NCBI GenBank assembly: GCA_021791515.1
Contig: JAJYWK010000006.1
Coordinates: 1 to 56,045, forward strand
Direction of reading: 5' to 3'
DNA from: a bacterium
GTDB lineage: Bacteria > Patescibacteriota > Doudnabacteria > UBA920
DNA: 56,045 nucleotides
Made by a program: the position numbers and the translations under genes. This document shows positions 1,164-52,067 of the stretch, piece after piece (position 1 is the first letter of the stretch; every line of letters starts with the position of its first letter). The notes below the pieces were generated by a model, which saw only the letters and a list, made by a program, of their open reading frames with translations, did no database searches and had not been told where the DNA came from.

Positions 1164-2114
1164 TTAGACGACCCGCCACTTTCCCATTTTATCTTTTACC
1201 AGTTTTCCGGCCACGGAAAAGCCAGCGGCCAGCTTGTGTCCCCCGCCGCCAAAAATGTGCGCGATTTTGGCAACATCCACATTTTTAAAAATATCGCTTC
1301 TTAAACTCCCTTTTATAATTTCGCCGTCCTGTTTTAAAAACATGGCGAATTTGGCTTCGGGCACTGTGTTTAAAGTTTCCACAAACCCTTCAAACGCGGC
1401 CAAAGGCAGGCTCTGAAATTCGCTTAAATCTTCCGCGGTCATGATTGAATAAATAATTTTATTCTTGGCGTCGTAAAAGGAATTTTTTATGGCCTTGCCC
1501 CAGGCTTTTAGCACGCCGGGGGTTTTTCTTTTTAAGGCATGGTTCATAATTTTGCCGGGGATGGCGCCTTTGCGCATAAGCTGGGCCGCCGCTTCCAAGG
1601 TGGAAGCTTTGGTGTTGGCGTGCATAAAGCCGCCGGTGTCCGTAATAATTCCGGTGAGTAAGCAAGTGGCAATGTCTTTGTCTATTTGCCAGCCGCAGTA
1701 ATTAAAAAAATCGTAAACCAGTTCAGCTACCGAAGATTTTTTGGAATCTACAATATTAACGTGGCCAAAATTCTGATTATCCGGATGATGATCAAAATTC
1801 AGAATCAAGCATTTAGCATTAAGAATTTGGGGGAAGCCGACTCTAACAAGTTCCGAACAGCCAAAAGTAATAAGCAAATCGTAATTTCCTTCTACCCAGT
1901 CGTCTTTGATTTTTTTAGCCCCGGGCAGAAAGCTTAAAGCTGGAGGCACTCCTTGTTTTATTGCGTAAACAACATGCTTTCCTTCGTTTTCCAGATGGCC
2001 GCCCAAAGCCAAAAGCGCTCCGCCATCGTCGCCATCCATGCGCTCGTGCATGGTGAGGAGAATGTTGGCAGATTGATCTATTAAGTTTTTCGCGGATTCA
2101 AAATGTTGTTGCAT
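1164..2114 (-). CDS. nrnA: DHH-family phosphoesterase, NrnA-like oligoribonuclease/pAp phosphatase
   Basis: Motifs DGDDGGALLAL, DHHPDN, GGGHKLAAGF (DHH/DHHA1). It sits next to rbfA and infB, as in many bacteria. Confidence 0.8.
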   Translation of the reverse strand: MQQHFESAKNLIDQSANILLTMHERMDGDDGGALLALGGHLENEGKHVVYAIKQGVPPALSFLPGAKKIKDDWVEGNYDLLITFGCSELVRVGFPQILNAKCLILNFDHHPDNQNFGHVNIVDSKKSSVAELVYDFFNYCGWQIDKDIATCLLTGIITDTGGFMHANTKASTLEAAAQLMRKGAIPGKIMNHALKRKTPGVLKAWGKAIKNSFYDAKNKIIYSIMTAEDLSEFQSLPLAAFEGFVETLNTVPEAKFAMFLKQDGEIIKGSLRSDIFKNVDVAKIAHIFGGGGHKLAAGFSVAGKLVKDKMGKWRVV

Positions 2115-2222
2115 TTGTTTATTATCCGGAACAACGAAAATTTAAGCGAATCTACGGAAAGCTACGGAACTTTATTTCCATTTCCGCAGTTTTCCGCAGA
2201 TCCGGATTGTTCCATTTCCGGA

Positions 2223-2621
2223 TTACTTTTCTTTATGCACTTCCCTAATCAATTCGTCTATATGTTCTACGTATCTTGGGGCGGTGTCCAAGTAAAAGCT
2301 GATTTTGGGGATAATTTTAGTATGGAAGTTTTTGTTCATTTCTCCCTGAATGTGGTAAATATTTTTACTTAAGTAACTCAGTATGGCTTTATCTAAAACA
2401 GCTGGGTCTTGTTCCGCGTTCTTTTTTGTCGGCGTGCTCTTGGGGTAAAACACAGAAATCCAAACCTTGGCCCATTTCATATCGCGGCTGGTTTCAACGC
2501 GGGAAATTGTTACAATACCGTTTTGCCAGTCTAAAGCCTCATGTAAAATCGGCCCCAAAGAATGTTCAATTAGGGAATTAACTTTGGCTATGCGGTTGGT
2601 GTCTTTTTTTATAGGTTGCAT
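2223..2621 (-). CDS. rbfA: ribosome-binding factor A
   Basis: RIAKVNSLIEHSLGPIL...ITISRVETSRDMKWAKVWISV is typical of RbfA. It lies in the infB neighbourhood. Confidence 0.8.
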   Translation of the reverse strand: MQPIKKDTNRIAKVNSLIEHSLGPILHEALDWQNGIVTISRVETSRDMKWAKVWISVFYPKSTPTKKNAEQDPAVLDKAILSYLSKNIYHIQGEMNKNFHTKIIPKISFYLDTAPRYVEHIDELIREVHKEK

Positions 2622-2754
2622 AAACTACAAAATTACGAATTATACGAATCTACCAATGACTACAAATAATATTTTTTCCATCCCGGACTCAATCCCAAGA
2701 TTCAGTCAGCGATTAGCCAATTATTGTAATGTATTTTGAGAGTTTAAGCAAGAG

Positions 2755-3486
2755 CTATATCGTGCTCCAAAAATAATTAAGCATAATATTCATTGTTTCA
2801 AAAATATCCGCACTTTCTATTACTAACCCTAGAGAGTCGTCGCCTTCTTGCGTAATAAAAGCTACTTTGCCGTTATATGCAAACATTTCATTTTTAAATG
2901 GAAAATTTTGTGCGGGTATTAGTTTGGTCTGGCGGAGCGCAAATTTATCTTTTGATTTCAAATCCTGGTAAAAAGGAATATCAGGAGCAATTACTCTAAC
3001 GTGGTTGCCTCTTTTTATTCTTCTGTCCACATATTCTCCGCCCCAGTAGCCCATTATTTTTTCGTCCGGCAATTTTGTGGATAGCACTTCTATATAATCG
3101 GCGCGTTTGGATAGCATATCTTCATAGATTTCTTTTATGCCCTCAATGCCTTTGTATATTCTGACTGACGGCTTCTTCCCGGCGTGGCTTTGAATGGACA
3201 ACAATTGCCCCATAATATTATGTAAAATATTTTCTTTTTGTCTTATCAGCGGGAAAATATTCTGTGGGTCTTCCGCAATATAGATTTTACGTTTGCCTTT
3301 TAAAATGGTTTTTATTAGCCCTTTTTCTTTTAGGCCGTCTATAAGTTCATAAACCGTAGCCCTTTTTAAGTGGGAACCGTTAACCAGCTCCTGCATGGTC
3401 GCGGGGCCGGTTTGGAGCCCGGCCAAATATAAAGCTGACTCTTTTTCACTTAATCCGATTTTTTGAAGGTTTTGTTCTAAATTCAT
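2755..3486 (-). CDS. TrmB-like HTH transcriptional regulator (paralog 1 of 5)
   Basis: The N-terminal winged HTH LGLSEKESALYLAGLQTGPATMQELV...RATVYELIDGLKEKGLI is shared with ORFs 5938-6672, 8276-9040, 31833-32627 and 38447-39190. Confidence 0.7.
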   Translation of the reverse strand: MNLEQNLQKIGLSEKESALYLAGLQTGPATMQELVNGSHLKRATVYELIDGLKEKGLIKTILKGKRKIYIAEDPQNIFPLIRQKENILHNIMGQLLSIQSHAGKKPSVRIYKGIEGIKEIYEDMLSKRADYIEVLSTKLPDEKIMGYWGGEYVDRRIKRGNHVRVIAPDIPFYQDLKSKDKFALRQTKLIPAQNFPFKNEMFAYNGKVAFITQEGDDSLGLVIESADIFETMNIMLNYFWSTI

Positions 3487-3635
3487 AAAATATCGGTAAA
3501 ACTGACGATATTTTTATAATAATATATGCTTATTTTAAAGGCAATTTTTAATATTGTCAATCAAATATATCAAGATTATTGATATATTTTTCCGTTTAGC
3601 TATAATAGCAAGTCAACTCAAAGGAGGGTTGGTTT

Positions 3636-3851
3636 GTGGCTCAAGAGCTAAAGTATAAAGATCTTCAGGAAATCGCTGCGGTCAGTCCGGAGATAACCGG
3701 ACAGCTTTTGGAACTCCAGGAACTTGCGGAAGAGTTGGGGGGCGATCCGGAAGAGTGGATTGCTTTTGCGCTGACAGTAAGTGCAATAGGGCGAGCTTAC
3801 GAACCCAAGCAAGAACAGTCGTGGCTTAACAGGCCATGGATTGTATCGTAA
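3636..3851 (+). CDS. hypothetical small acidic protein
   Basis: 71-aa ORF with a GTG start 8 nt after aaggaggg. It is divergent from TrmB paralog 1, followed by a terminator hairpin, and locally GC-richer by eye. Confidence 0.45.
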   Translation: MAQELKYKDLQEIAAVSPEITGQLLELQELAEELGGDPEEWIAFALTVSAIGRAYEPKQEQSWLNRPWIVS

Positions 3852-3974: not shown

Positions 3975-5903
3975 TTATAAAGTCTTTTGTTTAATCTTCT
4001 CTTCAAAACTCTCCAGTACGTCGCCGACCAAAATTTTCACGTTGGTTTTTAATTTAATGCCGAATTCTTCGCCGGTATTTACGTTCTTGCTGGCCACTTT
4101 GCTTTGTTGAAGTTCCAAAATATCCCCGCGGCCGAGTTCCGCTCCAGCGCGCCAAACCGAAATGTGGCTGTTTCTTTTTAGCTCCCCTTCTTCCACTTTA
4201 CCGCCCACTATCATTTCGCCTTTTTCCGTACGGAAAATGGCCAGGACTTTGGCTTTGCCCAACGAAATTTTTTCCGTTTCCGGAGTGAACATCTTAATTA
4301 CCGCGGAAGTAATGTCTTCCAGTAATTCATAAATAACATCGTAAGAATCAATTACCACTTTTTTTTGCTTGGCCAAATTAACGGCTTTGGGATTAATTTT
4401 TGCCCTAAAGCCAATAACCGAAGCTTTGGAGTTTGAAGCCATTAAAACATCGGATTCGTTTATTTCTCCCACGCCTTCGCTTAAAATGTTAATTCTAACT
4501 TCATCATTTTTTAATTTAGCAATGCTCTGCTTAATGGCTTCCAAAGAGCCGGCCACGTCTGCCTTTAAAATTAAATTCAATGTTTTATTTTCCAAGTCGC
4601 CCATAATTGCCTGTTTGCTCACCAAACGATGGCTTTGATTTTTACGCTGGCTTACAAGAGCAATGTCTTTGGCCATATCTAAAGTTTCTACCACCTGCAA
4701 AATGTCGCCGGCTTGGGGCACTTCGGAAAATCCCGATATCTGCGCCGGCGTGGAAGGCATAGCTTCTTTTAATTTGCGCCCGGTTTCATCTTCCAAAGAG
4801 CGGATGCGGCCAAAAGCCGCGCCAGCCGCAATAATATCGCCCGGCCTAAGCGTGCCGTTTTGTATTACCACTGTGGCCGTGGCGCCTTTGCCCTGGGTCA
4901 TTTTGCTTTCAATAATTGTGCCAATTGTCTGGCCTTGGGGGTTGGCGCGCAGGTTTTCCATTTCCGCGGTAAGCAGAATCATTTCTAACAAATTATCTAT
5001 TCCTTTGTTTTGTTTGGCGGAAATTTCGCAGGCAATGATTTTACCTCCCCACTCTTCAGTTAAAACTCCTTGGCCGGCCAGTTCCTGTTTAACTTTAATT
5101 ACGTTGGCCTCGGGCTTATCTACCTTGTTTATGGCCACAATCATTGGCGTGCTGGTGAATTTGGCACGGTTGATTACTTCCAGGGTCTGCGGCCTTACGC
5201 CGTCGTCCGCGGCCACCACCAAAACAATAATGTCCGTAACATTGGCTCCCCGCGCGCGCATTTCACTAAAGGCTTCGTGGCCAGGGGTGTCCAAAAATGT
5301 GATGGTTTTGCCGTTCTTTTTTACCGTGTAAGCGCCAATATGCTGGGTGATGCCACCGCTTTCGCCTTCGGCAACTTTGGTTTTGCGAATGGTATCAAGC
5401 AGAGTGGTTTTACCATGGTCAACATGGCCCATAATTGTCACAATCGGCGGACGGAGTTTTAAGTTTTCCTCTTTTTCCGCGCTCAAAACTTCCTGCAGGA
5501 AACCCAGGCCAAATTCTTTTTGACTCTGGTCGGCTTCGGTGGAAACATCAAAGTTTAAATCCTGCGCTACAATACTAGCAGTGTCAAAATCCACCTCTTC
5601 GTTAATAGTGGCCATTACGCCGTTTTGTATTAAGCTCTTAATGACATCGGTTACAGGCAGGCCGAGCAGGGCCGCAAAGTCGCGCACTTTTATAAACGAG
5701 GGCAGTTTAACTTTCTTTTTTTCTACCGGTTCGGCCGGCTTGGCCGCAACGGGTTTTACAGTCAATGCTTCGGTAATTTTTTTGGCCAGGAAGTTGTCGA
5801 TTTTATTCGCCCTGGGCGAAATAAAAAAACCTTTCTCGCGGGCGCGGGAGCGGAGTTCCTGGACGGACATATTCAGTTCGGACGAGAGGGAAGAAAGATT
5901 CAT
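3975..5903 (-). CDS. infB: translation initiation factor IF-2
   Basis: 642-aa ORF with GTPase motifs [17 protein letters not shown] and NKVD, plus the IF-2 C-terminal domains. Confidence 0.95.
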
Positions 5904-5937: not shown

Positions 5938-6672
5938 TCAAGCCTTTTCCCAAATCAAATTAAACAAAGAACGCATGGTAGTAGTGATTTCTTTAGAACG
6001 AATAATTACTCCAATGGGTTCGCTGTCTTTGCGATAGAGCGCGAACGATAAATTGTCGCCGTAAATGTAACAATCTAAGGGTATAGGATATAAATTTTCG
6101 TCCAGTAATTTTACTTCGCGTAAGGCATAAGTGTCAGTGGTAAGTTTTATTCGGTTAGACCTGGCTTGCCCGGAAACTAAAATTTTTATAGGGATTTTTC
6201 TTTTGATTCTTTGCGGAATGTAGTAGTTGGAGGAGTGAAATTCAATTTCCGGATGGATTTGTTTTAAACTGACAAACTCCAAAATTGGTTTTTGTTCCTT
6301 TAGGTTGTCGAAATAAAGTTTTTTTATGCCTTCCATGCCTTCATAAAAAATAATTTTTGGTTTATTAGAAGCGGTGGTTAATAGTAAGCGCAATTCCGGA
6401 ATTATGGTTTCCAATTGGTCTATCTCTGATTGCTTTTTATTTAAAAGATTTTCCGGATCTTCGGCAATCAAATATCTTCTTTTGCCCAATATAGTCTCGG
6501 CAATTAAGCCTTGCTTAAGTAGGTTTGGTAAAAGTTTGTACAGCACAGAGCGGTTAACTTTAGCTTTTTCCGCCAAGTGTTTGGGTAAAGATTTTCCTAA
6601 TTCTAAACCAGCTAAATAAATAGCCGACTCCGCTTGGGAAAGCCCTAAATTTTCCAGTAATTCTTGAATCAT
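5938..6672 (-). CDS. TrmB-like HTH transcriptional regulator (paralog 2)
   Basis: LGLSQAESAIYLAGLELGKSL...RSVLYKLLPNLLKQGLI. Length and C-terminal pattern match the other paralogs. Confidence 0.7.
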   Translation of the reverse strand: MIQELLENLGLSQAESAIYLAGLELGKSLPKHLAEKAKVNRSVLYKLLPNLLKQGLIAETILGKRRYLIAEDPENLLNKKQSEIDQLETIIPELRLLLTTASNKPKIIFYEGMEGIKKLYFDNLKEQKPILEFVSLKQIHPEIEFHSSNYYIPQRIKRKIPIKILVSGQARSNRIKLTTDTYALREVKLLDENLYPIPLDCYIYGDNLSFALYRKDSEPIGVIIRSKEITTTMRSLFNLIWEKA

Positions 6673-8275: not shown

Positions 8276-9040
8276 CTACTTTGTCAAGGTTGCTGACAAG
8301 CCCCAAATGGTGTCAAAAATTTTTCTTTCGCTTTCGGCAATGTCCGCGCTTTCAATTATCACCGTAACTAATTCCTTTTTGGAACTGTAAATAGCCACTT
8401 TATTGCCGTAAATCAGTTTGGAAGTATTGTAGATAAAATTTTCCGGCAAATATTTTACTTCGCGCAGGAGTTCGGAGTGGTTGGCCTTTAAAAAAGATTC
8501 GGGCATTTGGGATTTAAAATACAAGGCCTGAAAGCGAATATGGTTTTTTAAGCGAGTGGGGATGTAAAAATTTAAGTCCCATTCTTCGCTAACTACATTA
8601 TGGATTTCGCTGATGGAACCAATGTGTCTGACGGTCGCATTTGGCGTTTTAAGCGAATCTTCCGATGCGACAAAGTATCCTTCCTTGCCTTCGTAGTAAG
8701 TGATTTGCGGGCGACTGTCTTTTTTTTGCGTAAGGCTGTTTAACTGCGGTAAAATGGATTTTAAATCTTCCAGTTCTTTTTGGGTCTTGTTAATTAAAAT
8801 ATCGGGCGAAGTGGCCACGAACTTATGCCGGCCGCGCATTTTAAAACTGCCCATAAGACCCTTTTTTTCTAAAGCCTGGAAAATTACGTAAGCCGAAGTC
8901 CTTTTTATTTGGGCCTCGCGGGAAAGCTCACTCATGCCCGCTTCCCCGAGTTTTAAGCTGGCCAAATACAAAGCTGCTTCCGCGTCTTCCAGGCCATAAG
9001 TTTTTAAGGTTTGTTTAATGTCTTGCATAGCGCGAAGCAC
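8276..9040 (-). CDS. TrmB-like HTH transcriptional regulator (paralog 3)
   Basis: YGLEDAEAALYLASLKLGEAGMSELS...RTSAYVIFQALEKKGLM, with the same architecture as the other paralogs. Confidence 0.7.
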   Translation of the reverse strand: MLRAMQDIKQTLKTYGLEDAEAALYLASLKLGEAGMSELSREAQIKRTSAYVIFQALEKKGLMGSFKMRGRHKFVATSPDILINKTQKELEDLKSILPQLNSLTQKKDSRPQITYYEGKEGYFVASEDSLKTPNATVRHIGSISEIHNVVSEEWDLNFYIPTRLKNHIRFQALYFKSQMPESFLKANHSELLREVKYLPENFIYNTSKLIYGNKVAIYSSKKELVTVIIESADIAESERKIFDTIWGLSATLTK

Positions 9041-9302
9041 ATTATTATTCTCCCCAAGACTTGGGGAGATGTCCGCCGAAGGCGGACAGAGAGGTTGAAT
9101 AAGAGATTAATATTTTCTGACGTTTTTTACGTCAACATTCTAGCATAGCTAATAAAATATAGCAAATGTTGATGATTCTAATATAGAATTACGCCATAAT
9201 TATTGACGTTATGTCAATTTTAATATATTGTTATTGGTTAAAACAAAAACACCCGGCGGGGCATGAATACGCAAAGATCGTTTTTACCCTGAAGGAGGGG
9301 TT

Positions 9303-15095: not shown

Positions 15096-15318
15096 TGGTG
15101 GACCTGGGGGGAATCGAACCCCCGCCTCGGCAATAGCGCCCCAGCAGCAAATTCGCTATGCGAGTTGCTACGGGGTAAAAATGCCGCAGTAATATTTACC
15201 CCGTTACTTTTGGTGGACTCACCGGGAATCGGACCCGGGCCTCGGCAATGCGAATGCCGCGTAATACCACTTTACTATGAGCCCAACAAAAGTTACGGGG
15301 CCACTTTACTACAGGCCC
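15096..15318 (-). tRNA. interrupted tRNA-Ala gene (outer gene; inserts at 15139-15179 and 15195-15300)
   Basis: The acceptor halves gggcctg (15312-15318) and caggtcc+a+cca (15096-15106) include a G3:U70 pair. Removing the two CCCC...GGGGTAAA-type inserts gives D arm gtaa-agtggta-ttac, anticodon stem cggca/tgccg, loop ttCGCtat (8 nt), and T arm ggggg-ttcgatt-ccccc. Confidence 0.6.
15211..15284 (-). tRNA. tRNA-Ala(CGC), intact, nested inside the D-loop insert of the outer tRNA-Ala
   Basis: gggctca-ta-gtaa-agtggta-ttac-g-cggca-ttCGCat-tgccg-aggc-ccggg-tccgatt-cccgg-tgagtcc-a-cca, with G3:U70 present. Confidence 0.85.
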
Positions 15319-15993: not shown

Positions 15994-17409
15994 TCACCTA
16001 GCCTCTCCTTTGAAAGGAGAGGAATTTTTTTGATTTGTTTCTGCGGCAATGAGGCCAAGGAGTATCCAAAGTAACATTTGAGTTTGCTGGAGGGTATAAA
16101 AGTAGTGGTCGAATTGCATGAGGACGAGAAAACAAGTAAATAAGCTGATAAGCAATAAGAGGTAAATAGAAAAATCATCCTTGAATTTATAGTATATAGC
16201 TTTTAGTTGGTACAAAAATATCCAGAGCAAAATTAAAGCAAATGGGATGCCGAGTTCAGCCGCCGCGATAATAAAATAGTTGTGCGGTGGCTGTTTTTCC
16301 CATGGCATTAAGGTTTTATTGGAGACCTGTTCCATATGAAGCAGGCCCTCCCCTGCTCCAACGCCAAATAGAGGATGTTGCTCGGCCATTTTTAGTCCCA
16401 TTTGATCATAAAACTTTCTGTCGATAGTAGATTGGTCTGAAAATGTTGCGCGGGTTAAAAGGAAGGGGCGGAAAATGGCAAAGCTGATTAAGATTGACAT
16501 CGCCAAAACCGAAATTGCGAGCCCCGATGATAGTCGGGGCGAAGCAATCTGGTTCGTTGATGAGATTGTTTCGCTGCCCTCACTTACGCTCGGGCCCCTC
16601 GCAATTTCCAATTTGCGATACTTCATCGTACCAAAAAATATAACCAGCCCAACCCCCAAAGCCAAGTATGCTCCACGTGAAAATGCCACAGTTAGTCCTA
16701 AAATATTGAGGAAAATAAGAAAGGAATAGGCTATTTTGGCCTTTTTTTGATTAGAAATCATTAGTAAATAAGCGGCAATAAGCACTCCGGTGACCAAGAA
16801 AGCAGAAAACACGTTAGGGTGAGGAAACGTCCCATAACCACGAATAAAAGTTGTTCCATTTGAAACAATCTTTGCGACTCCAAGCATATTTGGCGCAAGA
16901 TGCGACTCCCCTAGCCTATAAAGTCCCAGAGATGATTGTTTGGCAAATTGGGCCAAAGCAATAATTGATTGAATTCCACAGAACCACGCAAAAATCTTAA
17001 AAAACCAAGTTTTTAAATCAAATTTGCTAAATGCCAGATACGCTGTTCCATATGCAACAATAATAAATTCAAGGAATTTTATAAAATTCCATATATTTAA
17101 GCCAGAAATTGAGTTTTTTGCAAAGAAAAGCGCTAAGATAAGCCAAAATATTAATATCCACAATCTTTTATCCTTAATCCTTGACCAAAAAAGTGTAAAA
17201 TTAAACCATAAAATAAAGAGAAAGGCAAAAAATAATAAAATATCGCTTAAATATAAGGAAAAGCTTGTAAAATCAGAATAATCACCTGTTAGATAGCTTG
17301 AAGCCGTCAAAAAGACGTGTCTTATTGGAAAAAATAGCGATAACAAAAACAAAAAGGTAAAAACTTTAACCCAAATCTCTGAATTGAACTTTTTAAGAAC
17401 ATTTATCAT
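15994..17409 (-). CDS. O-antigen ligase/polymerase (Wzy_C) family membrane protein
   Basis: 471-aa polytopic ORF with AFSRGAYLALGVGLVIFF and a periplasmic-loop pattern typical of the O-antigen ligase family. The 3' end overlaps the hairpin cctctcctt-tga-aaggagagg. Confidence 0.65.
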   Translation of the reverse strand: MINVLKKFNSEIWVKVFTFLFLLSLFFPIRHVFLTASSYLTGDYSDFTSFSLYLSDILLFFAFLFILWFNFTLFWSRIKDKRLWILIFWLILALFFAKNSISGLNIWNFIKFLEFIIVAYGTAYLAFSKFDLKTWFFKIFAWFCGIQSIIALAQFAKQSSLGLYRLGESHLAPNMLGVAKIVSNGTTFIRGYGTFPHPNVFSAFLVTGVLIAAYLLMISNQKKAKIAYSFLIFLNILGLTVAFSRGAYLALGVGLVIFFGTMKYRKLEIARGPSVSEGSETISSTNQIASPRLSSGLAISVLAMSILISFAIFRPFLLTRATFSDQSTIDRKFYDQMGLKMAEQHPLFGVGAGEGLLHMEQVSNKTLMPWEKQPPHNYFIIAAAELGIPFALILLWIFLYQLKAIYYKFKDDFSIYLLLLISLFTCFLVLMQFDHYFYTLQQTQMLLWILLGLIAAETNQKNSSPFKGEAR

Positions 17410-17458
17410 AATCTAATTTTAACATCTTTATTAATTTGGTATAATTGACTAGTCCTGT

Positions 17459-17682
17459 GCCCTCGCCCCGGTAGCAATCCGCCTTCGGCGGACGTTACGG
17501 GGTAAATAGCTCAACTTGCCCCGTCACATATGTTGCTTTCGTAGCTCAATGGATAGAGCAAATCCGTCCTAAGGATGAGATGTAGGTTCGATTCCTACCG
17601 AGAGCACCATATGTGACGGGGTGGATTAGAGCAGGTCCGTCCTAAGGACAAGATGGGGGTCCGATTCCCTCCGAGGGCACCA
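17459..17682 (+). tRNA. interrupted tRNA-Arg(CCU) gene (outer gene; inserts at 17466-17506 and 17515-17621)
   Basis: gccctcg[ins]ta-gctc-aa[ins]tggatta-gagc-a-ggtcc-gtCCTaa-ggaca-agat-ggggg-tccgatt-ccctc-cgagggc-a-cca. This is a full cloverleaf after removal of the two inserts. Confidence 0.65.
17535..17609 (+). tRNA. tRNA-Arg(CCU), intact, nested inside the D-loop insert of the outer tRNA-Arg
   Basis: gctttcg-ta-gctc-aatggata-gagc-a-aatcc-gtCCTaa-ggatg-agat-gtagg-ttcgatt-cctac-cgagagc-a-cca. Confidence 0.85.
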
Positions 17683-17811
17683 AAAATTTGTAAAAAATAA
17701 AATTAAACAAAAAATATACTTGTCCCGTTAGATTTAAGTGTAAAAATTATAAAGGTCGTTTAAATAATTTTGGGACAGTATAAATAAGAATAAAAATTAA
17801 AATCTAATGGG

Positions 17812-18162
17812 ATGTTGGATCCAGAACTGCACAATTATCTTTCGGGCATCAATCAAAATTTGGTTGATTTAAAAAATAAAAAAACCCCGGGCATTTGGCG
17901 GTCATTTTTTAATGGAATGTTTTCAGCTTTGGGCTACTTAGCGGGGCTGGCTTTGGTGCTTTTGATTTTGGGTTGGGTATTGAATAAAATGGGGTTAACC
18001 GCCGCCTTTCAGCAACAGATGAGGGATTACCAATCTTTTTTTAACGAAGCAAAAAAAGTCATGAGCGCAGGGGGACAGAGCGGGCAGGGGAGCAGCCAGA
18101 CAAAAAACGGAGAGACGATCATAACTTTGCCGGATGGCAGGCAGGTAAAAGTAATTCAGTAA
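17812..18162 (+). CDS. hypothetical membrane-anchored protein
   Basis: 116-aa ORF with one central TM segment and a Gly/Ser/Gln-rich tail. Confidence 0.5.
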   Translation: MLDPELHNYLSGINQNLVDLKNKKTPGIWRSFFNGMFSALGYLAGLALVLLILGWVLNKMGLTAAFQQQMRDYQSFFNEAKKVMSAGGQSGQGSSQTKNGETIITLPDGRQVKVIQ

Positions 18163-18216
18163 AGCAGTATTGAAAAATATATTAAAATAAGATAGAATAT
18201 CAAGGCAATTATTTTG

Positions 18217-18290
18217 GGGCCTGTAGTATAATGGTAATACGCGACCATGGCATGGTTGAGTTAGGAGTCCGATTCTCCTCAGGTCCACCA
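18217..18290 (+). tRNA. tRNA-Ala(GGC)
   Basis: gggcctg-ta-gtat-aatggta-atac-g-cgacc-atGGCat-ggttg-agtt-aggag-tccgatt-ctcct-caggtcc-a-cca. Its acceptor stem is identical to that of the interrupted Ala gene at 15096-15318. Confidence 0.85.
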
Positions 18291-18354
18291 CAAAAAAGAT
18301 CTTCTGTTTGAAGGTCTTTTTTGTCAGGAAGAGTTATATTTGCCTCAGAAATAC

Positions 18355-18389
18355 AAAAACAGCCGCTCTTTAACAGAGCGGCTGTTTTT
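18355..18389. terminator. bidirectional intrinsic terminator
   Basis: aaaaa-cagccgctct-ttaac-agagcggctg-ttttt. Confidence 0.7.
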
Positions 18390-18720
18390 GGTCGGGATGC
18401 CCCAGTAGCATAACCTTCGGTTAGCTACGGGGTAAACAGGGAATTGAACCCTGTCTTCATCCGCCTTAGGCGGACTTCGGCGGACAGGCGCACCTTTACC
18501 CCGCACCAATTTTTTACAAATGTTTGCTTTTGGTCGGGATGCAGGGAATCGAACCCTGTCTCCACGCACCCGAAGCGTGTGTACTACCGGTATACTACAT
18601 CCCGGTCAAAAGAAAACAGTTATAATTTTTTAAGATAATAATTGGTGCGGGGCGTGGCGCGCGTACTACCGGTATATTTACCCCGTAGTCAGCTTGCTGT
18701 ACCACTGGGGCTACATCCCG
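18389..18720 (-). tRNA. interrupted tRNA-Pro(CGG) gene (outer gene; four inserts: 18400-18436, 18458-18486, 18495-18652, 18677-18710)
   Basis: After removal of the inserts the minus strand reads cgggatg-ta-gtat-accggta-gtac-g-cgcgc-caCGGgt-gcgcc-aaga-caggg-ttcaatt-ccctg-catcccg-a-cca. That is 74 nt, the same length and acceptor/D arm as the nested gene. Confidence 0.6.
18531..18604 (-). tRNA. tRNA-Pro(CGG), intact, nested inside the anticodon-loop insert of the outer tRNA-Pro
   Basis: cgggatg-ta-gtat-accggta-gtac-a-cacgc-ttCGGgt-gcgtg-gaga-caggg-ttcgatt-ccctg-catcccg-a-cca. Confidence 0.85.
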
Positions 18721-18921
18721 TCGTCGCAGCTTGCTTCGAGCTTTCGGCTTTTACTAAAAGTAAAAGCCTTTCGCTCTGCGCAGCTACTCCTTTGTCCCAA
18801 AAATTCGTGCTCGCCGTCCAATGGGCGTCTGCGCACCAAATCTTTGGGAACCCTAGTCTAACTGAAAAATCCTATATATTATATCCTTTTAAAATCCTTT
18901 TATCAATGGTAAAATTAGCGC

Positions 18922-19719
18922 ATGGAAAAGCAGATTGTAATCAACGATAACTTAATTTCCTACAGTCAAACCGGCGAAGGGGAGCGGGCAGTGATTTTTT
19001 TGCACGGCTGGCGGAGTAATAAAGAAGTTTGGAACCAGGTAATACAGAGAATTAGAGAATTAGAGAATGAGAGAATTAGGATTTATTCCATCGATCTTCC
19101 CGGATTTGGTGGTTCATCGGCGCCTAAAACAGCTTGGTGTGTGGGGGATTACGCGGAAATTGTAAAAGGCTATATAGAAAAGTTGGAATTGAAAAATGTT
19201 ATAATCGTGGGTCATTCTTTTGGGGGAAGGATCGGCATCAAGTTAGCCGCGAACCCTTACCCGGCCTCCGGCCACCCTCTCCCAGAGGGAGAGGGAAAAT
19301 TGAAGGGGCTGATTTTGGTGGATGCGGCTGGGTTTGCCATGAATGCAAATAAAAAAACCATTATATCGGCGGCGGCAAAATTGACTAAGCCATTTTTTAA
19401 GCCAAAATTTATGCAGGGTTTGCGTAAGAAAATTTATCAAAAAATCGGCGCGGAAGACTATTTGGCCACTCCGGAATTGCAACAAACTTATGTAAAAGTT
19501 ATAAGTGAAGATTTGACTGAAGATTTAAAAAAAATAACTTTGCCAACTTTAATTATCACGGGTGAAAATGACAAAGATACGCCGATAGAGTTTGGTCGTA
19601 AAATGAATTCCTTAATTCCGAATTCCGAATTCCAAATTCTTAAAAATGCCGGGCATTATAGCTTTATTGATCAGCCGGAGGAGTTTGTAAATAATATTTT
19701 AGAATTTATGTCATCCTGA
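18922..19719 (+). CDS. alpha/beta-fold hydrolase
   Basis: HGWRSN..., nucleophile elbow VGHSFGG, C-terminal NAGHYSFIDQPEEF. It contains a hairpin-encoded insert at 19275-19295, and its stop codon lies inside the repeat at 19709-19769. Confidence 0.75.
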   Translation: MEKQIVINDNLISYSQTGEGERAVIFLHGWRSNKEVWNQVIQRIRELENERIRIYSIDLPGFGGSSAPKTAWCVGDYAEIVKGYIEKLELKNVIIVGHSFGGRIGIKLAANPYPASGHPLPEGEGKLKGLILVDAAGFAMNANKKTIISAAAKLTKPFFKPKFMQGLRKKIYQKIGAEDYLATPELQQTYVKVISEDLTEDLKKITLPTLIITGENDKDTPIEFGRKMNSLIPNSEFQILKNAGHYSFIDQPEEFVNNILEFMSS

Positions 19720-24443: not shown

Positions 24444-25001
24444 GTGATGAGATATAAACATCTGGCCAAAGAAAGAAATAAAAAAATGACGCTTGCCGCG
24501 GAGGTGCTTTTGTATTTTTTTGCTTTTGCGGATTTTTTACCCCGGCCGTTTGAGCACAAAACCCATTATACTAAGCGACTGCTTAGTGGAAAAACCGACG
24601 CATATTCTTACTATAGAATTATGAGAAGTTTGGAGGAGCGGGGGTGGCTGAAGGTTTATAAAGAAGGGAAAAGTAAACTTTATTCTCTAACTGAGCAGGG
24701 AAAATTGGAAGCTTTGTTTCTTAAAGCTCATTTGCCGGAAAAAGAAAATTGGGATGGCAAATGGCGGATGTTAATTTTTGATATTCCCGAGGACGCGCGT
24801 CCGGAAAGAAATAAATTGAGGAGATTATTAAAGACCAATGGTTTTAAACAAATTCAAAAAAGCGTATTTATAAACCCATATCCGTTGAATAGCGAAGCAA
24901 TCAGTTATCTTCAGCAAATCGGTTTGGATAAGTTTATTCGTATATTTAGAATTGATAAAGCAGACAACGAAAATTCTTTAAAAAAGTTATTCGATTTGTA
25001 A
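24444..25001 (+). CDS. PaaX-like / Cas2-fold domain regulator (wHTH plus WDGKWR...FDIPE module)
   Basis: YYRIMRSLEERGWL (wHTH-like), then NWDGKWRMLIFDIPEDARPERNKLRRLLKTNGFKQIQKSVFI, which is typical of PaaX C-terminal/Cas2-like ferredoxin-fold proteins. Confidence 0.5.
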   Translation: MMRYKHLAKERNKKMTLAAEVLLYFFAFADFLPRPFEHKTHYTKRLLSGKTDAYSYYRIMRSLEERGWLKVYKEGKSKLYSLTEQGKLEALFLKAHLPEKENWDGKWRMLIFDIPEDARPERNKLRRLLKTNGFKQIQKSVFINPYPLNSEAISYLQQIGLDKFIRIFRIDKADNENSLKKLFDL

Positions 25002-26431: not shown

Positions 26432-26529
26432 TGTCATCCTGAATTTATTTCAGGATCCATAAAATAGATTCCGGAACCCCAGTAGTAGAACCTTCGGTTC
26501 ACTACGGGGCAGGCAAGTCCGGAATGACA
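26432..26529. repeat. tgtcat...atgaca element with a nested CCCC...GGGG hairpin (26477-26509)
   Basis: The backbone matches 19709-19769, but the tccgga/tccgga hairpin loop is occupied by ccccagtagtagaaccttcggttcactacgggg. Confidence 0.75.
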
Positions 26530-31698: not shown

Positions 31699-31832
31699 GG
31701 TTCCTCCTCTGGGACAATACAGAATATCACCAGCCGCATCGTTTATAAATTAGTATTTATTTACATTTGGCTTATTTGACAGAAATTCTGTTAGTAGTAT
31801 AATTAATTGTCAATGACAAATTGACAAACTAT

Positions 31833-32627
31833 ATGCTACAAAGCGAAATAATATTAAAAAAGCTCGGGCTTTCTGAGCACGAAGCCAAAGTTTATCTCTT
31901 GGGCATTAAGTTGGGCCCGAGTCTTGCCAGTGAAATATCAAAACAGTCGGGTTTGGGCCGGACGCTGGTTTATCATCTGCTGGGACAGTTAAAAAGCAAA
32001 GGTTTGGTTAGCGAACAGGGTAGCGGCAACGGTAAAAAGTTTTTTATGGAACCGCCGGAGAGGCTGTTAAATATTGTGGAAAGAAAACAAAAAGAGTTGG
32101 AGGGTATGGCAGTTCAAGTTACGCAAATTACCAAAGAATTAAAGTCATCCGCTATCTTTTCCGGCATACCGCAAATCCGCGTTTATGAAGGCACGGAAGG
32201 CATAAAGAATTTTGCCCAGGACACCTTGGCTGTAAAAGGCACGCTGACTAAAGCCATCGTTCCCATCGATAATTTATTAAAGATGCTGGATAAGTTTTTT
32301 TTGCGCTATTGGTTTTTAGGGCGAAATAAGCAAAATATTATGGGCAAAACTTTGTTTACCGGCACTCCGCGCAAACCATTCTCTATTGATCAGATAAAAC
32401 AATTGCTTAACACCCCACACGCCAGCAGTTTTTTGCATCAATGGAAAAAAAGCCCAAGGGAATTTGTGTTCCAGAATACCGTAGTAATTTTTGGTAATAA
32501 AGTCGCGGTAGTTTCGTCTCCTGAAAAACCCTCGGTGTTTGTTATTGATTCCGGCGAGTTTGCCGCCACTATGAGTATTTTTTTTGATGATTTATGGAAA
32601 CGAAGCGCAGTTTTGAAACAGAAATAA
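31833..32627 (+). CDS. TrmB-like HTH transcriptional regulator (paralog 4)
   Basis: LGLSEHEAKVYLLGIKLGPSLASEIS...RTLVYHLLGQLKSKGLV. I moved the start to the ATG at 31833. The 8-bp inverted repeat ttgtcaat/attgacaa lies just upstream. Confidence 0.7.
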   Translation: MLQSEIILKKLGLSEHEAKVYLLGIKLGPSLASEISKQSGLGRTLVYHLLGQLKSKGLVSEQGSGNGKKFFMEPPERLLNIVERKQKELEGMAVQVTQITKELKSSAIFSGIPQIRVYEGTEGIKNFAQDTLAVKGTLTKAIVPIDNLLKMLDKFFLRYWFLGRNKQNIMGKTLFTGTPRKPFSIDQIKQLLNTPHASSFLHQWKKSPREFVFQNTVVIFGNKVAVVSSPEKPSVFVIDSGEFAATMSIFFDDLWKRSAVLKQK

Positions 32628-38446: not shown

Positions 38447-39190
38447 ATGAAAGAATTATCGGAAAGTTTGGAAAAGTTGGGTTGGCATAACAAAAAAGCC
38501 AAAGTTTATTTGGCGCTTTTGCAATTGGGTGAAGGTAGTGTTATCGATATTGCTTATAAGTCTGGCCTAAAACGAACCACTGTTTACAACATTCTTCCTG
38601 AAATGGTTCGCGAAGGAATTGTGACGACAGGCATTAAACATCAAAAGAAGTATTATTATGTAGAGAATCCGAAAAATCTCAAGCAGGATTTTCAGGATAA
38701 AATAAACTATATTGAGAAAATACTGCCAGAGCTTTCCGCTATCCATAACATTATTCCCTATAAGCCGAAAATTTCTTATTATGAGGGCGTGGGTGGAATG
38801 AAAGAGTTGTATTTAGATACGTTAGACAGCTTACATGGTGGCGATACCATTTTAAGTTATACGGGTTTTAGGGATTATTATCAGTTTATGCCAAGGGAAT
38901 ATATGGACTGGTATGTGCAGGAAAGAGTTAACCGTAAAATTAGAATAAAAATGATCGTTCCAGATTTTCCGACGACTAGGGAAATTTTACCACAAGCTCA
39001 AAGTACTTTGCGCGAAATTAAAGTTATTCCGGGCGACACTTGGCAGTTTTCCGCAGATACGGAAATTTATGCTAATAAGGTTGCGCTTATCTCCCACACG
39101 GAAAATTTTATTGGTGTAATCATTGAAAGTAAAGAAATTAACCAGATGCAGAGGATGGCTTTTGAAATTATGTGGAATGCGCTAAAATAA
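38447..39190 (+). CDS. TrmB-like HTH transcriptional regulator (paralog 5)
   Basis: LGWHNKKAKVYLALLQLGEGSVIDIA...RTTVYNILPEMVREGIV. The inverted repeat atatgtct-n8-agacatat overlaps the start region. Confidence 0.7.
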   Translation: MKELSESLEKLGWHNKKAKVYLALLQLGEGSVIDIAYKSGLKRTTVYNILPEMVREGIVTTGIKHQKKYYYVENPKNLKQDFQDKINYIEKILPELSAIHNIIPYKPKISYYEGVGGMKELYLDTLDSLHGGDTILSYTGFRDYYQFMPREYMDWYVQERVNRKIRIKMIVPDFPTTREILPQAQSTLREIKVIPGDTWQFSADTEIYANKVALISHTENFIGVIIESKEINQMQRMAFEIMWNALK

Positions 39191-51522: not shown

Positions 51523-51856
51523 TTTAGAATCTATTTTAAAAATAATTTGTAGGCGAAATTTGAGGATTTTGAGCAGATTGGATCTTAACAAATTTTGACG
51601 TTTAGCCAAAGCTAAGCGGAAGAATTTTTCAGACCAAGATGCCAAAATACCGCAAATTGCAGCCCGAAGGATTTTTAAAATAGGTTCTTAGGCGCAATCT
51701 AATACCCCCGTCTTACTTGAATAGTAGGGCGGGGCTTGTTATTTGGTTTGAAAAATGCTAAAATTTTTGAGCCGAGCAACCAGCTCGAGTGGTGCAATTG
51801 GCCTCAGTTGAATCATTGCTTCGCAATATTCAACGGGGCAAGCGGTCTTGGCATCT

Positions 51857-51943
51857 GCCTTGGTGGCGGAATTGGTATACGCACTAGGTTTAGGACCTAG
51901 CGAGGGTAACCTCTTGAGAGTTCGAGTCTCTCCCAAGGCACCA
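51857..51943 (+). tRNA. tRNA-Leu(UAG), type II
   Basis: gccttgg-tg-gcg-gaattggtata-cgc-a-ctagg-ttTAGga-cctag-(variable arm)-gagag-ttcgagt-ctctc-ccaaggc-a-cca. It is flanked by the 10-bp inverted repeat acggggcaag / cttgccccgt. Confidence 0.85.
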
Positions 51944-52067
51944 GGCAATGGTTTACGTATTTGGTTCAACCTTGCCCCGTAGGGACGCCTGGCGTCTCCT
52001 TCGGGGTCCCATCTCGAGCACCATAAAAAGAGAAAGATTTTTAATCGCTCATCAGAGGTAAAATTAT

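Follow-up and report, generated by a model that had tools for sequence, protein, structure and literature searches.

A tRNA-Arg(CCU) gene nested within an interrupted tRNA-Arg(CCU) gene, and the palindromic element family found at this and related loci of Patescibacteria

In a 56,045-nt stretch of DNA from a bacterium of the Doudnabacteria (contig JAJYWK010000006.1, assembly GCA_021791515.1; hereafter the window, in whose positions all coordinates are given unless a comparison contig is named), a complete tRNA-Arg(CCU) gene lies inside a second tRNA-Arg(CCU) gene at positions 17459-17682 of the plus strand. The outer gene is divided into three pieces by two inserts of 41 and 107 nt, the longer of which contains the inner gene. 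Both inserts belong to a single family of short imperfect hairpins that is distributed mostly among the candidate phyla radiation (CPR), and the outer sequence corresponds, as judged by comparison with related contigs, to the resident gene. The explanation that we consider probable is that the resident tRNA-Arg(CCU) gene was split by an empty and a tRNA-loaded copy of this CPR-wide palindromic element, with the inner gene working from the resident promoter and the outer gene being a young relic.

Architecture of the nested tRNA-Arg locus

The outer gene begins with the 5' strand of its acceptor stem, GCCCTCG (tRNA positions 1-7; 17459-17465), which pairs perfectly with 17672-17678 and is also present in the intact genes of L127, L128 and L132 (L001-L132 are our labels for comparison contigs or loci). 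Insert 1 (17466-17506) separates tRNA positions 7 and 8 and is an empty hairpin, CCCCGGTAGC...GTTACGGGG, followed by the tail TAAA and oriented like the tRNA. In the construct recognized by ARAGORN, the second piece of the outer gene (17507-17514) supplies U8, A9, the 5' strand of the D-stem (GCTC), A14 and A15. Insert 2 (17515-17621) occupies the outer D-loop and is a loaded element, consisting of a tail CTTG (17515-17518; the reverse complement of CAAG), a 5' arm CCCCGTCACATA (17519-17530), a spacer TGTT (17531-17534), the inner tRNA-Arg(CCU) gene (17535-17609) and a 3' arm TATGTGACGGGG (17610-17621). The inner gene is intact and canonical, encodes its CCA end (ARAGORN; Rfam tRNA model, 62.2 bits) and is presumed to be the working gene. 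The third outer piece (17622-17682) extends from the remainder of the D-loop to the acceptor 3' strand and ACCA, and thereby holds the D-stem 3' strand, the anticodon arm (CCT), the variable loop and the T arm GGGGG-TCCGATT-CCCTC. All of these features are on the plus strand, and the coordinates and sequences given for the locus in an earlier reading of the bare sequence (the original prediction) all match the window.

When the three outer pieces are joined (17459-17465 + 17507-17514 + 17622-17682), ARAGORN recognizes the resulting 76 nt as tRNA-Arg(CCT); the acceptor stem is perfect over its 7 bp, the CCA is encoded and the cloverleaf is that expected of a tRNA gene. ARAGORN, Rfam and the spliced construct thus agree that one complete tRNA-Arg(CCU) gene lies within a second, interrupted one. 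The joined gene is the canonical 76-nt tRNA that had been predicted, with the small correction that its D-loop AATGGAT[T]A contains one T more than those of all intact relatives. As encoded, the outer gene is not contiguous, as a tRNA gene should be, and no known intron type matches its interruptions. As a control for chance, the identical three-piece geometry was slid over both strands of the window, generating 37,210 constructs, among which a tRNA spanning both junctions was found only at the Arg locus and at two other nested loci.

An extended -10 element (TGgTATAAT; 17437-17445, plus strand) lies 13 nt 5' of the outer gene, and TGtTATAAT occupies the equivalent position 5' of the single tRNA-Arg in relatives. 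On the basis of its sequence, this putative resident promoter presumably drives the whole nested unit, including the inner tRNA-Arg, which has no room for a promoter of its own and would therefore use the resident one. The predicted fold of the whole transcript reproduces the nested design with the outer stems formed (dG -117.5 kcal/mol, z = -9.3), and in it an arm helix of ~17 bp stacks on the inner acceptor stem. The perfect 12-bp helix that had been noted around the inner gene exceeds the background, as the flanks of ~90 other tRNAs are complementary over 6-11 bp, mostly 7-10. The tccgcc hairpin inside insert 1 had likewise been said to occur elsewhere in the window, and TCCGCCTTCGGCGGA is indeed present in three copies against 0.03 expected. 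Hairpins of the form TCCGCC-N3-4-GGCGGA, which may constitute a separate mini-hairpin family, were observed at 9072-9086, 17478-17492 and 18460-18474 of the window, that is, as one intergenic copy, in the loop of insert 1 and in an extra insert of an outer tRNA-Pro gene described below, as well as at ~3843-3868 of L130.

The outer gene as the resident copy

The window encodes bacterial proteins such as IF-2, FtsK, FtsH, Mur ligases and RNase III, and homologs of its O-antigen ligase are labeled Patescibacteria or Doudnabacteria, the nearest being only 67% identical. In six syntenic contigs of relatives, whose Wzy_C is 57-64% identical (L001-L006), the genes for tRNA-Pro(CGG), Ala(GGC), Arg(CCT) and Ala(CGC) at the corresponding sites are present once each and without interruption. 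Metagenome contigs were additionally scanned with the last 28 nt of the outer Arg gene (T arm and acceptor 3' end), which matched seven uninterrupted tRNA-Arg genes exactly; several of these adjoin Ala(GGC) and Pro(CGG). Because these seven intact genes carry the T-loop TCCGATT, its C55 is normal in the lineage, and C55 was accordingly discarded as a mark of a pseudogene.

The spliced outer Arg gene is 95% identical to the native Arg gene of L130 and 92% identical to those of both L128 and L132, whereas for the inner gene it is the native tRNA-Arg of L001 that shows 96% identity. The two copies are 83% identical to each other, so that the original prediction was right to reject a recent tandem duplication: each resembles, at 95-96%, the native gene of a different relative. 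The same pattern holds at two neighboring loci, where an outer tRNA-Ala(CGC) differs by just two extra T's from its native counterparts in L001, L003, L004 and L005, an outer tRNA-Pro resembles the gene of the closest relative, L006, and the inner copies differ from the relatives' resident genes. Synteny, sequence identities and the retained promoter together indicate that the outer gene is the resident, freshly interrupted one and that the inner gene is the incomer. The outer fragments are therefore not the arbitrary flanks of a mobile element, an outcome that had been named beforehand as one that would undo the proposal; they form a resident gene at a syntenic site behind a resident promoter.

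Single extra T's stand 3-6 nt 3' of the insertions in the outer genes (17622-17632 in Arg; 15185-15190 and 15131-15138, minus strand, in Ala), at GGAT[T]A in the Arg D-loop and at TTAC[T]GCGG and CGC[T]ATTG in Ala. In the outer Ala gene of L087, two nucleotides are found where the native gene has G26 alone. Such extra T's may represent a co-transferred donor tract or a footprint of insertion.

A hairpin family common to both inserts

Family members are imperfect hairpins of the form CCCC[A/G]...[C/T]GGGG followed by a 4-nt single-stranded tail (TAAA, CAAG or CAGG), with the consensus CCCC-A-GTAGT-A-GA[variable stem-loop]TC-ACTAC-GGGG-TAAA and two bulged bases in the stem. The inserts at the Arg, Ala and Pro loci all share these ends and the tail, some of them in the orientation opposite to that of the tRNA. 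A pattern built from the insert ends was run on species-representative genomes and viral contigs. It gave at least 114 matches in species-representative genomes, mostly of CPR phyla, and matches were found in Paceibacterota, Saccharibacteria, Kazan, Vogelbacteria, Doudnabacteria, Moraniibacteria, Magasanikiibacteria, Komeilibacteria and Shapirobacteria. Among 97 unique copies, a purine precedes the hairpin in 88 and a C follows it in 53. The CAAG tail variant occurs in L122, L019 and L130.

Covariation was assessed on a 37-nt alignment of 15 members, in which 99% of cells are paired and five pairs have changed on both sides; none of 500 shuffles reached the observed covariation score, and slid controls paired at ~40%. 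The covariance model derived from these 15 members detects five significant copies in the window, four of them within nested tRNA loci. Insert 1 is matched with 27.8 bits (E = 2.6e-4) and has the family ends, the tail and a G at -1. The fifth copy, a canonical hairpin CCCCAGTAGTAGAACCTTCGGTTCACTACGGGG followed by CAGG (26477-26513, plus strand; 57.4 bits, E = 6e-11), lies in an ordinary intergenic spacer, showing that the family is not specific to tRNA genes. In Rfam, only the tRNAs passed the gathering threshold, and nothing credible was found for the hairpin or the locus at E values up to 10.

Insertion is precise where the native sequence is known. Removal of insert 1 restores the native GCCCTCG|TAGCTCAA, and at two sites each in Arg and Ala the comparison with native genes reveals a clean insertion with no target duplication. 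The TAAA tail was considered as a target duplication and ruled out, being absent from the native Ala and Arg sequences. A possible exception was seen in L017, where TTCG stands on both sides of an insertion and could be a 4-nt target duplication.

Family hairpins are concentrated near tRNA genes: 26 of 83 lie within 300 nt of an intact tRNA, compared with 6% for random positions at the same loci. Ten were located by nhmmer with a tRNA profile inside tRNA-like sequence, in the D-loop, anticodon loop or T-loop or at stem junctions. Excising a single hairpin at each of the 114 matches and running ARAGORN restored no tRNA, because the hosts carry several inserts. Hairpins inside long open reading frames (ORFs) proved to be mostly chance matches in non-CPR genomes or to lie in spurious short frames, the exception being a PfkB-family kinase gene, in which two species carry an in-frame family hairpin of 39 nt (13 aa, CLPRSESADSTTG). 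These copies are at 3203-3240 of L095 (ORF 2700-3755, plus strand) and 2154-2191 of L123 (ORF 1597-2361, minus strand), and the two proteins are 69% identical; the L123 protein has a second insert of ~20 aa further along. Tandem arrays also occur, as in L122, where three hairpins follow one another.

In L021, L042, L058, L118 and L122, which represent several phyla, a hairpin occupies what seems to be one conserved non-tRNA site with the flanks aaaaaagttcg|hairpin|gattt(t/c)gttc; in L122 this is the last copy of the three-hairpin array. Chloroflexi bacterium J111 (L032, L045, L059, L079, L109) contains many near-identical copies of a different hairpin, CCCCGGCGGGCATTGGGATGCCCCGCCTACGGGGTAAA, with similar flanks; as its ends are the same and the genome is not of the CPR, the terminal signature is not confined to the CPR. 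An initial impression that the relatives lack the family was partly wrong, since they have no CGGGGTAAA but do carry a subfamily of the form TCCC...GGGA+CAAA. A phage origin was ruled out: a megablast search of 17300-19000 against phage records gave no match, the arm pattern of the loaded Arg and Ala elements is absent from viral contigs, and these contigs contain only one family hairpin (L007).

tRNA-loaded elements and further nested loci

Insert 2 shares with the empty hairpins the family foot, the tail (CTTG, read as CAAG on the other strand) and the purine at -1, its loop being formed by TGTT and a whole tRNA. Arms of at least 12 bp bracket 12 tRNAs in the data, and in eight of these the arm begins CCCC[G/A]. 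The chassis CCCCGTNAC NNN TGTT-tRNA-NNN GTNACGGGG is common to the Arg and Ala elements of the window and the Ala element of L087, and related arms surround tRNA-Leu(GAG) in L019. An empty hairpin in L025, TCCCGTACCAAAGAC...GTCTTGGTACGGGA+CAAG, has as its stem the arms of the loaded elements of L016 and of the window's Pro locus. Foot, tail, -1 purine and the L025 stem together identify the loaded element as a hairpin of the same superfamily with a tRNA gene in its loop.

Four of the eight tRNAs of the window are nested, namely Arg, Ala(CGC), Pro(CGG) and a decayed Leu(TAG). The Ala and Pro loci have the same architecture as the Arg locus, as had been proposed. The outer tRNA-Ala(CGC) (15096-15318, minus strand) is identical to that of relatives except for the two extra T's; a loaded element (15195-15300) with the inner tRNA at 15211-15284 lies in its D-loop, and a reversed hairpin (15139-15179) lies between U33 and C34. 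The outer tRNA-Pro(CGG) (18389-18720, minus strand), whose anticodon loop is mutated, is no longer called by ARAGORN; it contains a loaded element in the anticodon (18495-18652; inner tRNA 18531-18604), hairpins at 18400-18436 and 18677-18710, and an extra TCCGCC-type insert of ~27 nt at about 18458-18485. The fourth nest appears older: remnants of an outer tRNA-Leu, GCTCGAG...CTCGAGCACCA (51783-52023, plus strand), surround an intact tRNA-Leu(TAG) (51857-51943), accompanied by degenerate hairpins at 51802-51842 (plus strand) and 51971-52006 (minus strand) that the covariance model scores at E = 0.1 and E = 2.

Nesting recurs across phyla. An armed, intact tRNA within a hairpin-bearing tRNA of the same type was found in L016 (Kazan; Gln), L017 (Saccharibacteria; Pro, apparently three levels deep), L076 (Minisyncoccia; Pro), L113 (Pro, with an outer anticodon not readable with certainty), L130 (Pro, at the same anticodon position as in the window), L087 (Ala) and L019 (Leu). 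In all nests with two legible anticodons, that of the cargo equals that of the host; the outer gene of L113 is ambiguous. The occurrence of the same nesting at further loci and in further genomes supports the earlier view that a recurring mechanism, rather than an accident, is at work. At 250-820 of L017, part of which is masked with N, the 5' arm TCCCGTTAGAAATTAT is also present 5' of the 'outer' tRNA-Pro, and the 3' arm with TTCGGTGCG is repeated after its 3' end. A second conserved insert family, (T)CCTCCGAAGCTTTA(G)CGT(A/G)AGGATGGA, was observed in the T-loops of disrupted outer tRNA-Ala and tRNA-Pro genes of different lineages (L087, ~4410-4441; L130, ~4135-4166), with a related string in L090.

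These observations bear on two explanations that dispense with a mobile palindrome. Local duplication or rearrangement, by replication slippage or recombination between tandem copies, has in its favor that the inner and outer genes of L017 and L076 are nearly identical, but we regard it as very unlikely for the window: the inner and outer Arg genes diverge as described above, both inserts bear the family foot, tail and -1 signature, and one chassis carries different tRNAs. That the locus is the remnant of an integrase-mediated island, with attL and attR as partial duplicates, or an assembly artefact is hardly credible. It is true that tRNA genes are classic integration sites and that L003 has a duplicated tRNA-Pro 3' end. 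The outer pieces, however, are complementary, non-overlapping parts of one gene, the 107-nt insert contains no ORF and no integrase, and the sites are the D-loop and the 7/8 junction rather than the 3' half; an artefact is contradicted by the same architecture in many independent assemblies from different studies. The L003 case (6149-6310) consists of a tRNA-Pro(CGG) whose 3' end (CAGCCCGACCAAACAAAA) is present a second time ~70 nt beyond the gene, resembling att-type integration, and differs in kind from the nests.

Insertion into DNA versus removal from RNA

Family hairpins occur in both orientations within tRNAs and are also found in intergenic DNA, in tandem and in frame in the PfkB gene. 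Together with clean insertion and the graded decay of the outer genes, the two orientations and the intergenic and kinase copies favor insertion at the DNA level over RNA splicing. The damage increases from locus to locus: the outer Arg gene is intact but for its extra T, the two extra T's of the outer Ala gene create an 8-nt anticodon loop, the outer Pro gene has lost U33 (changed to A), and only the ends of the outer Leu gene survive. We infer that the outer Arg gene is dead as well. A match between the anticodons of cargo and host would be expected if the host gene is dead and would be needless if it were spliced.

The alternative is a multi-intron or split tRNA, in which both tRNAs are functional and the inserts are removed from the RNA, amounting to an archaeal-style system in a bacterium; the removal could proceed through an endonuclease and a ligase, or through cuts by RNase III or RNase P/Z with the halves held together by the 12-bp helix. 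Several features are compatible with it: the spliced outer Arg gene is a flawless cloverleaf, the predicted transcript fold is coherent and forms the outer stems, the hairpin stems and arms covary, the inserts sit in loops and at stem junctions, rnc is present in the window, and RNase III is known to remove intervening sequences from bacterial rRNA without religation (PMC11270868). We nevertheless judge this alternative unlikely. With both hairpin orientations in tRNAs, the RNA would present two different hairpins; members of the family also reside in intergenic DNA and within a kinase reading frame; excision could not mend the lesions of the sister genes; and cargo with the anticodon of the host, as in all readable nests, would serve no purpose if the host gene worked. 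Bulge-helix-bulge (BHB) geometry (3-nt bulge, 4-bp helix, 3-nt bulge) is absent at the junctions of the predicted fold, where helices start directly, and neither an EndA-like nor an RtcB gene was found among the ~50 window proteins, which is weak evidence. A group I intron, which has a core of ~200 nt or more and in bacterial tRNAs usually occupies the anticodon loop, had no Rfam match (Intron_gpI) to E 10, and the inserts measure only 41 and 107 nt. The proposal that RNase III or RNase P/Z cleavage would leave halves that associate as a working outer tRNA is thus not supported, given a DNA family with both orientations and damaged sister genes. If the RNA were nicked at the 7/8 junction or within the anticodon loop, no usable tRNA would remain.

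Orientation, patchy distribution and spread

Within 160 nt of an intact tRNA, hairpins on its 5' side are co-oriented with it in 14 of 19 cases and those on its 3' side are inverted in 12 of 13 (Fisher p = 3e-4; 6e-4 without duplicate and orthologous loci). On either side of the intact tRNA the 4-nt tails are consequently directed toward it, and insert 1 conforms to this rule. Three readings of the rule are open: a single-strand-specific element that inserts into strands exposed by resection around a break, a REPtron-like composite (REP, cargo and inverted REP, where REP denotes a repetitive extragenic palindrome), or RNA-level selection for a hairpin-plus-AU-tail punctuation around the tRNA.

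The nested state is distributed patchily. L087 and L130 come from distant relatives that retain synteny (Wzy 49-50% identical), and the nested Ala of L087 is like that of the window, with the same type of inner tRNA at the same D-loop site and arms that differ by compensatory changes. A hairpin stands at U33|C34 of Ala in the window, L087 and L126. Despite its L087-like nesting, the window's outer Ala gene matches that of closer, un-nested relatives, and the inner Pro gene of L130 is identical to the native, arm-less gene of L001. These comparisons show that nesting is patchy and that tRNA similarity does not follow organismal relatedness, a pattern consistent with repeated site-specific insertion, with recombination in the conserved tRNA halves that would transfer nested alleles, or with both. 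RecA is present.

A related explanation invokes an endonuclease-driven homing allele, whereby an uninterrupted tRNA gene is cut and repaired from a nested allele with the tRNA halves as homology arms, while the single strands laid bare by resection receive the hairpins. In its favor, distant lineages with different outer genes have their inserts at the same points (GG|TA of the D-loop and U33|C34 of Ala in the window, L087 and L126), the Pro anticodon insertion point is the same in the window and L130, and an extra base at position 26 is common to the window and L087. In addition, the orientation rule is what 5'-to-3' resection on either side of a break would expose to a single-strand-inserting element, RecA is present, and small GIY-YIG ORFs adjoin tRNA genes in relatives. 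No nuclease is linked to the elements, however; the GIY-YIG ORFs, which the window lacks, neighbor tRNA genes that are not interrupted and contain no DNA-binding domain, and the ends of the outer Ala gene show no co-conversion toward an L087-like donor. We regard homing as rather doubtful in its own right, and it could also operate as a mechanism beneath the insertion of palindromic elements rather than as an exclusive alternative to it. In the relatives without nests, the GIY-YIG-only ORFs (83-112 aa) were observed immediately 3' of tRNA genes, most notably Ala(CGC) (L003 7608-7892 and 12649-12900; L004 3162-3500; L005 9137-9400; L001 15212-15499; L002 1766-2044); they could be free-standing homing endonucleases or unrelated.

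Proposed course of events and points against it

Under the explanation that we consider probable, the outer gene would be the original tRNA-Arg(CCU), at its ancestral site behind its ancestral promoter, and a non-autonomous palindromic family that has spread through the CPR (Patescibacteria) would have cut it twice. The element would insert after a purine, with target bases neither gained nor lost, and insert 2 would have brought as its cargo a complete tRNA-Arg(CCU) gene from a different lineage, so that the same event would destroy the resident gene and replace it. Transcription of the inner tRNA would start at the resident promoter; in the transcript this tRNA would form a separate domain, shielded by the arm helix, and pre-tRNA processing would release it, with RNase P acting at the 5' end, trimming at the 3' end and possibly an RNase III cut in the arm helix. 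The outer Arg relic would decay later, as its sisters Ala, then Pro, then Leu have already done. By analogy with REP/RAYT or IS200/IS605 systems, the element may move as folded single-stranded DNA by means of a hairpin-recognizing enzyme encoded elsewhere. Recombination within the conserved tRNA 'exons' may also have carried nested alleles from one lineage to another, and the cargo probably matches the host tRNA since only such insertions would keep function and expression and then spread.

A bolder version, which we regard as possible rather than probable, treats the loaded element as a disrupt-and-rescue cassette: a folded single-stranded DNA hairpin with a tRNA would enter the loops of a homologous tRNA gene, possibly at resected breaks, silence it and take over its promoter, the nested allele would spread between distant CPR lineages via the tRNA halves, and repeated rounds, as reflected in three-level nests and graded relics, would make this the main route of tRNA turnover in the CPR.

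Several points weigh against insertion of a tRNA-loaded palindrome as the explanation. Pfam searches of the ~50 window proteins revealed no transposase, HUH, GIY-YIG, reverse transcriptase or RtcB domain; clustering of 632 ORFs near hairpins at 64 independent loci yielded no recurrent protein family; and no hairpin pair brackets an ORF. With no transposase or nuclease in the 56-kb window and none recurrent beside the hairpins at the 64 loci, the mobilizing enzyme is hypothetical. The hairpin sequence is conserved over very distant phyla and its orientation depends on the side of the tRNA, which could reflect an RNA-level function for the host. The outer Arg gene is still a perfect cloverleaf after in silico excision, its loss of function being a matter of inference, and the outer Ala gene of L087 is likewise a perfect cloverleaf after three excisions. 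The explanation offers no route by which a tRNA gene would enter a hairpin loop. Finally, the anticodons of three of the four nested tRNAs of the window begin with C34 (Arg CCU, Ala CGC and Pro CGG). C34 isoacceptors are often dispensable through wobble decoding when a U34 isoacceptor exists, so that survival of rescued insertions alone is not the whole reason for the cargo match; the genes of C34 isoacceptors may simply be permissive targets.

Comparison with known systems

REPs are imperfect palindromes of 30-40 nt with a conserved GTAG, a required stem mismatch, complementary copies and inverted pairs (PMC3333891), and IS608 inserts into single-stranded DNA 'without DNA gain or loss' (PMC3201880). 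IS608 has guide and cleavage tetranucleotides spaced at set distances. The substrates of REP/RAYT (TnpA-REP) and the hairpins of IS200/IS605 elements and their ORF-less derivatives resemble the CPR hairpins in being imperfect palindromes of 30-50 nt with a stem irregularity and GTAG, and REPs and CPR hairpins are alike non-autonomous, dispersed, clustered, arranged in inverted pairs and represented by diverged yet complementary copies. As in these groups, the CPR element is a short imperfect palindrome that is present in many covarying copies and leaves no target-site duplication. In the CPR hairpins, however, GTAG lies inside the stem after the CCCC-A foot, whereas in REPs it lies 5' of the foot; the CPR hairpins also end in a conserved 3' tail of 4 nt and show an R|...|C preference in their flanks, and no Y1/HUH gene accompanies them in the window or recurs near the 64 loci. 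Unlike the CPR elements, REPs are not known to have a gene within their loop or to reside inside tRNA genes, and the REP paper makes no mention of tRNA (PMC3333891). REPs and the subterminal hairpins of IS200/IS605 are thus the closest described substrates, while membership in either group is not established.

Disrupted tRNAs of archaea include the mobile BHB introns of Thermoproteales and split or tri-split tRNAs (PMC10714607). They share with the CPR loci several inserts at non-canonical positions, mobile behavior and helices flanking the interruption. In archaea, however, the BHB motif is spliced from RNA by EndA and a ligase and the interrupted gene is functional, whereas the CPR loci belong to a bacterium, lack a BHB, contain hairpins in both orientations, and have an interrupted gene that decays and an insert that carries the presumed working tRNA.

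The logic proposed for the CPR elements, in which an essential or useful host gene is disrupted and a replacement supplied, is also that of tRNA-targeting integrative elements and of synthetic ClvR drives (PMC6442612). The former depend on an integrase and replace only the 3' part of the gene via att duplication, and the latter are synthetic and use Cas9, whereas the ~107-nt CPR element is an ORF-less hairpin that places a whole tRNA gene in the middle of its homolog. Inserts in the rRNA genes of the CPR, comprising group I and II introns, homing-endonuclease inserts and RNase III-processed intervening sequences, attest that CPR RNA genes are rich in insertions at the tops and bases of stem-loops, but differ in being introns or intervening sequences removed from a functional host RNA (PMC11270868). 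The survey in question is restricted to rRNA and makes no mention of tRNAs or palindromes. Integron attC sites have the R''/R' core sequences RYYYAAC ... GTTRRRY on either side of an imperfect hairpin with extrahelical bases, whereas the CPR ends read CCCC[A/G]...GGGG+TAAA; the two have in common only the general idea of a structured single-strand site.

Rickettsia palindromic elements (RPEs) are small palindromic repeats of a reduced genome that occur in frame in protein genes and in RNA genes. They resemble the CPR hairpins as tolerated in-frame inserts, the CPR case being the 39-nt PfkB copy in two species, but RPEs measure ~100-150 bp and have neither the CCCC/GGGG-plus-tail signature nor cargo. 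In the literature consulted in full text, including PMC11270868, no description was found of nested tRNAs or of the CPR hairpin family.

Implications

If the proposed explanation is correct, this would be the first bacterial case known to us of tRNA genes nested in tRNA genes of the same anticodon, as well as the first small palindromic element of the REP or MITE (miniature inverted-repeat transposable element) kind known to carry a functional gene in its loop. It would show concretely how the bacteria with the fewest genes can have their tRNA genes replaced horizontally, and the bolder version, if true, would explain why tRNA genes do not follow the organismal tree of the CPR. For annotation, the findings serve as a warning, because CPR genomes contain numerous relics of split tRNAs that are overlooked or wrongly counted by tRNA finders. 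A hairpin family that spans phyla and has such precise ends should make the responsible enzyme discoverable, and the side-dependent orientation rule offers a testable clue to the mode of insertion.

Other features of the window

Beyond the tRNA loci, the window contains five paralogous TrmB-family regulator genes (2755-3486, 5938-6672, 8276-9040, 31821-32627 and 38447-39190) and four genes for proteins with a T4SS-pilin domain between 47499 and 51522. A PaaX/Cas2-like protein is encoded at 24444-25001, adjoining a tRNA-Ser gene.

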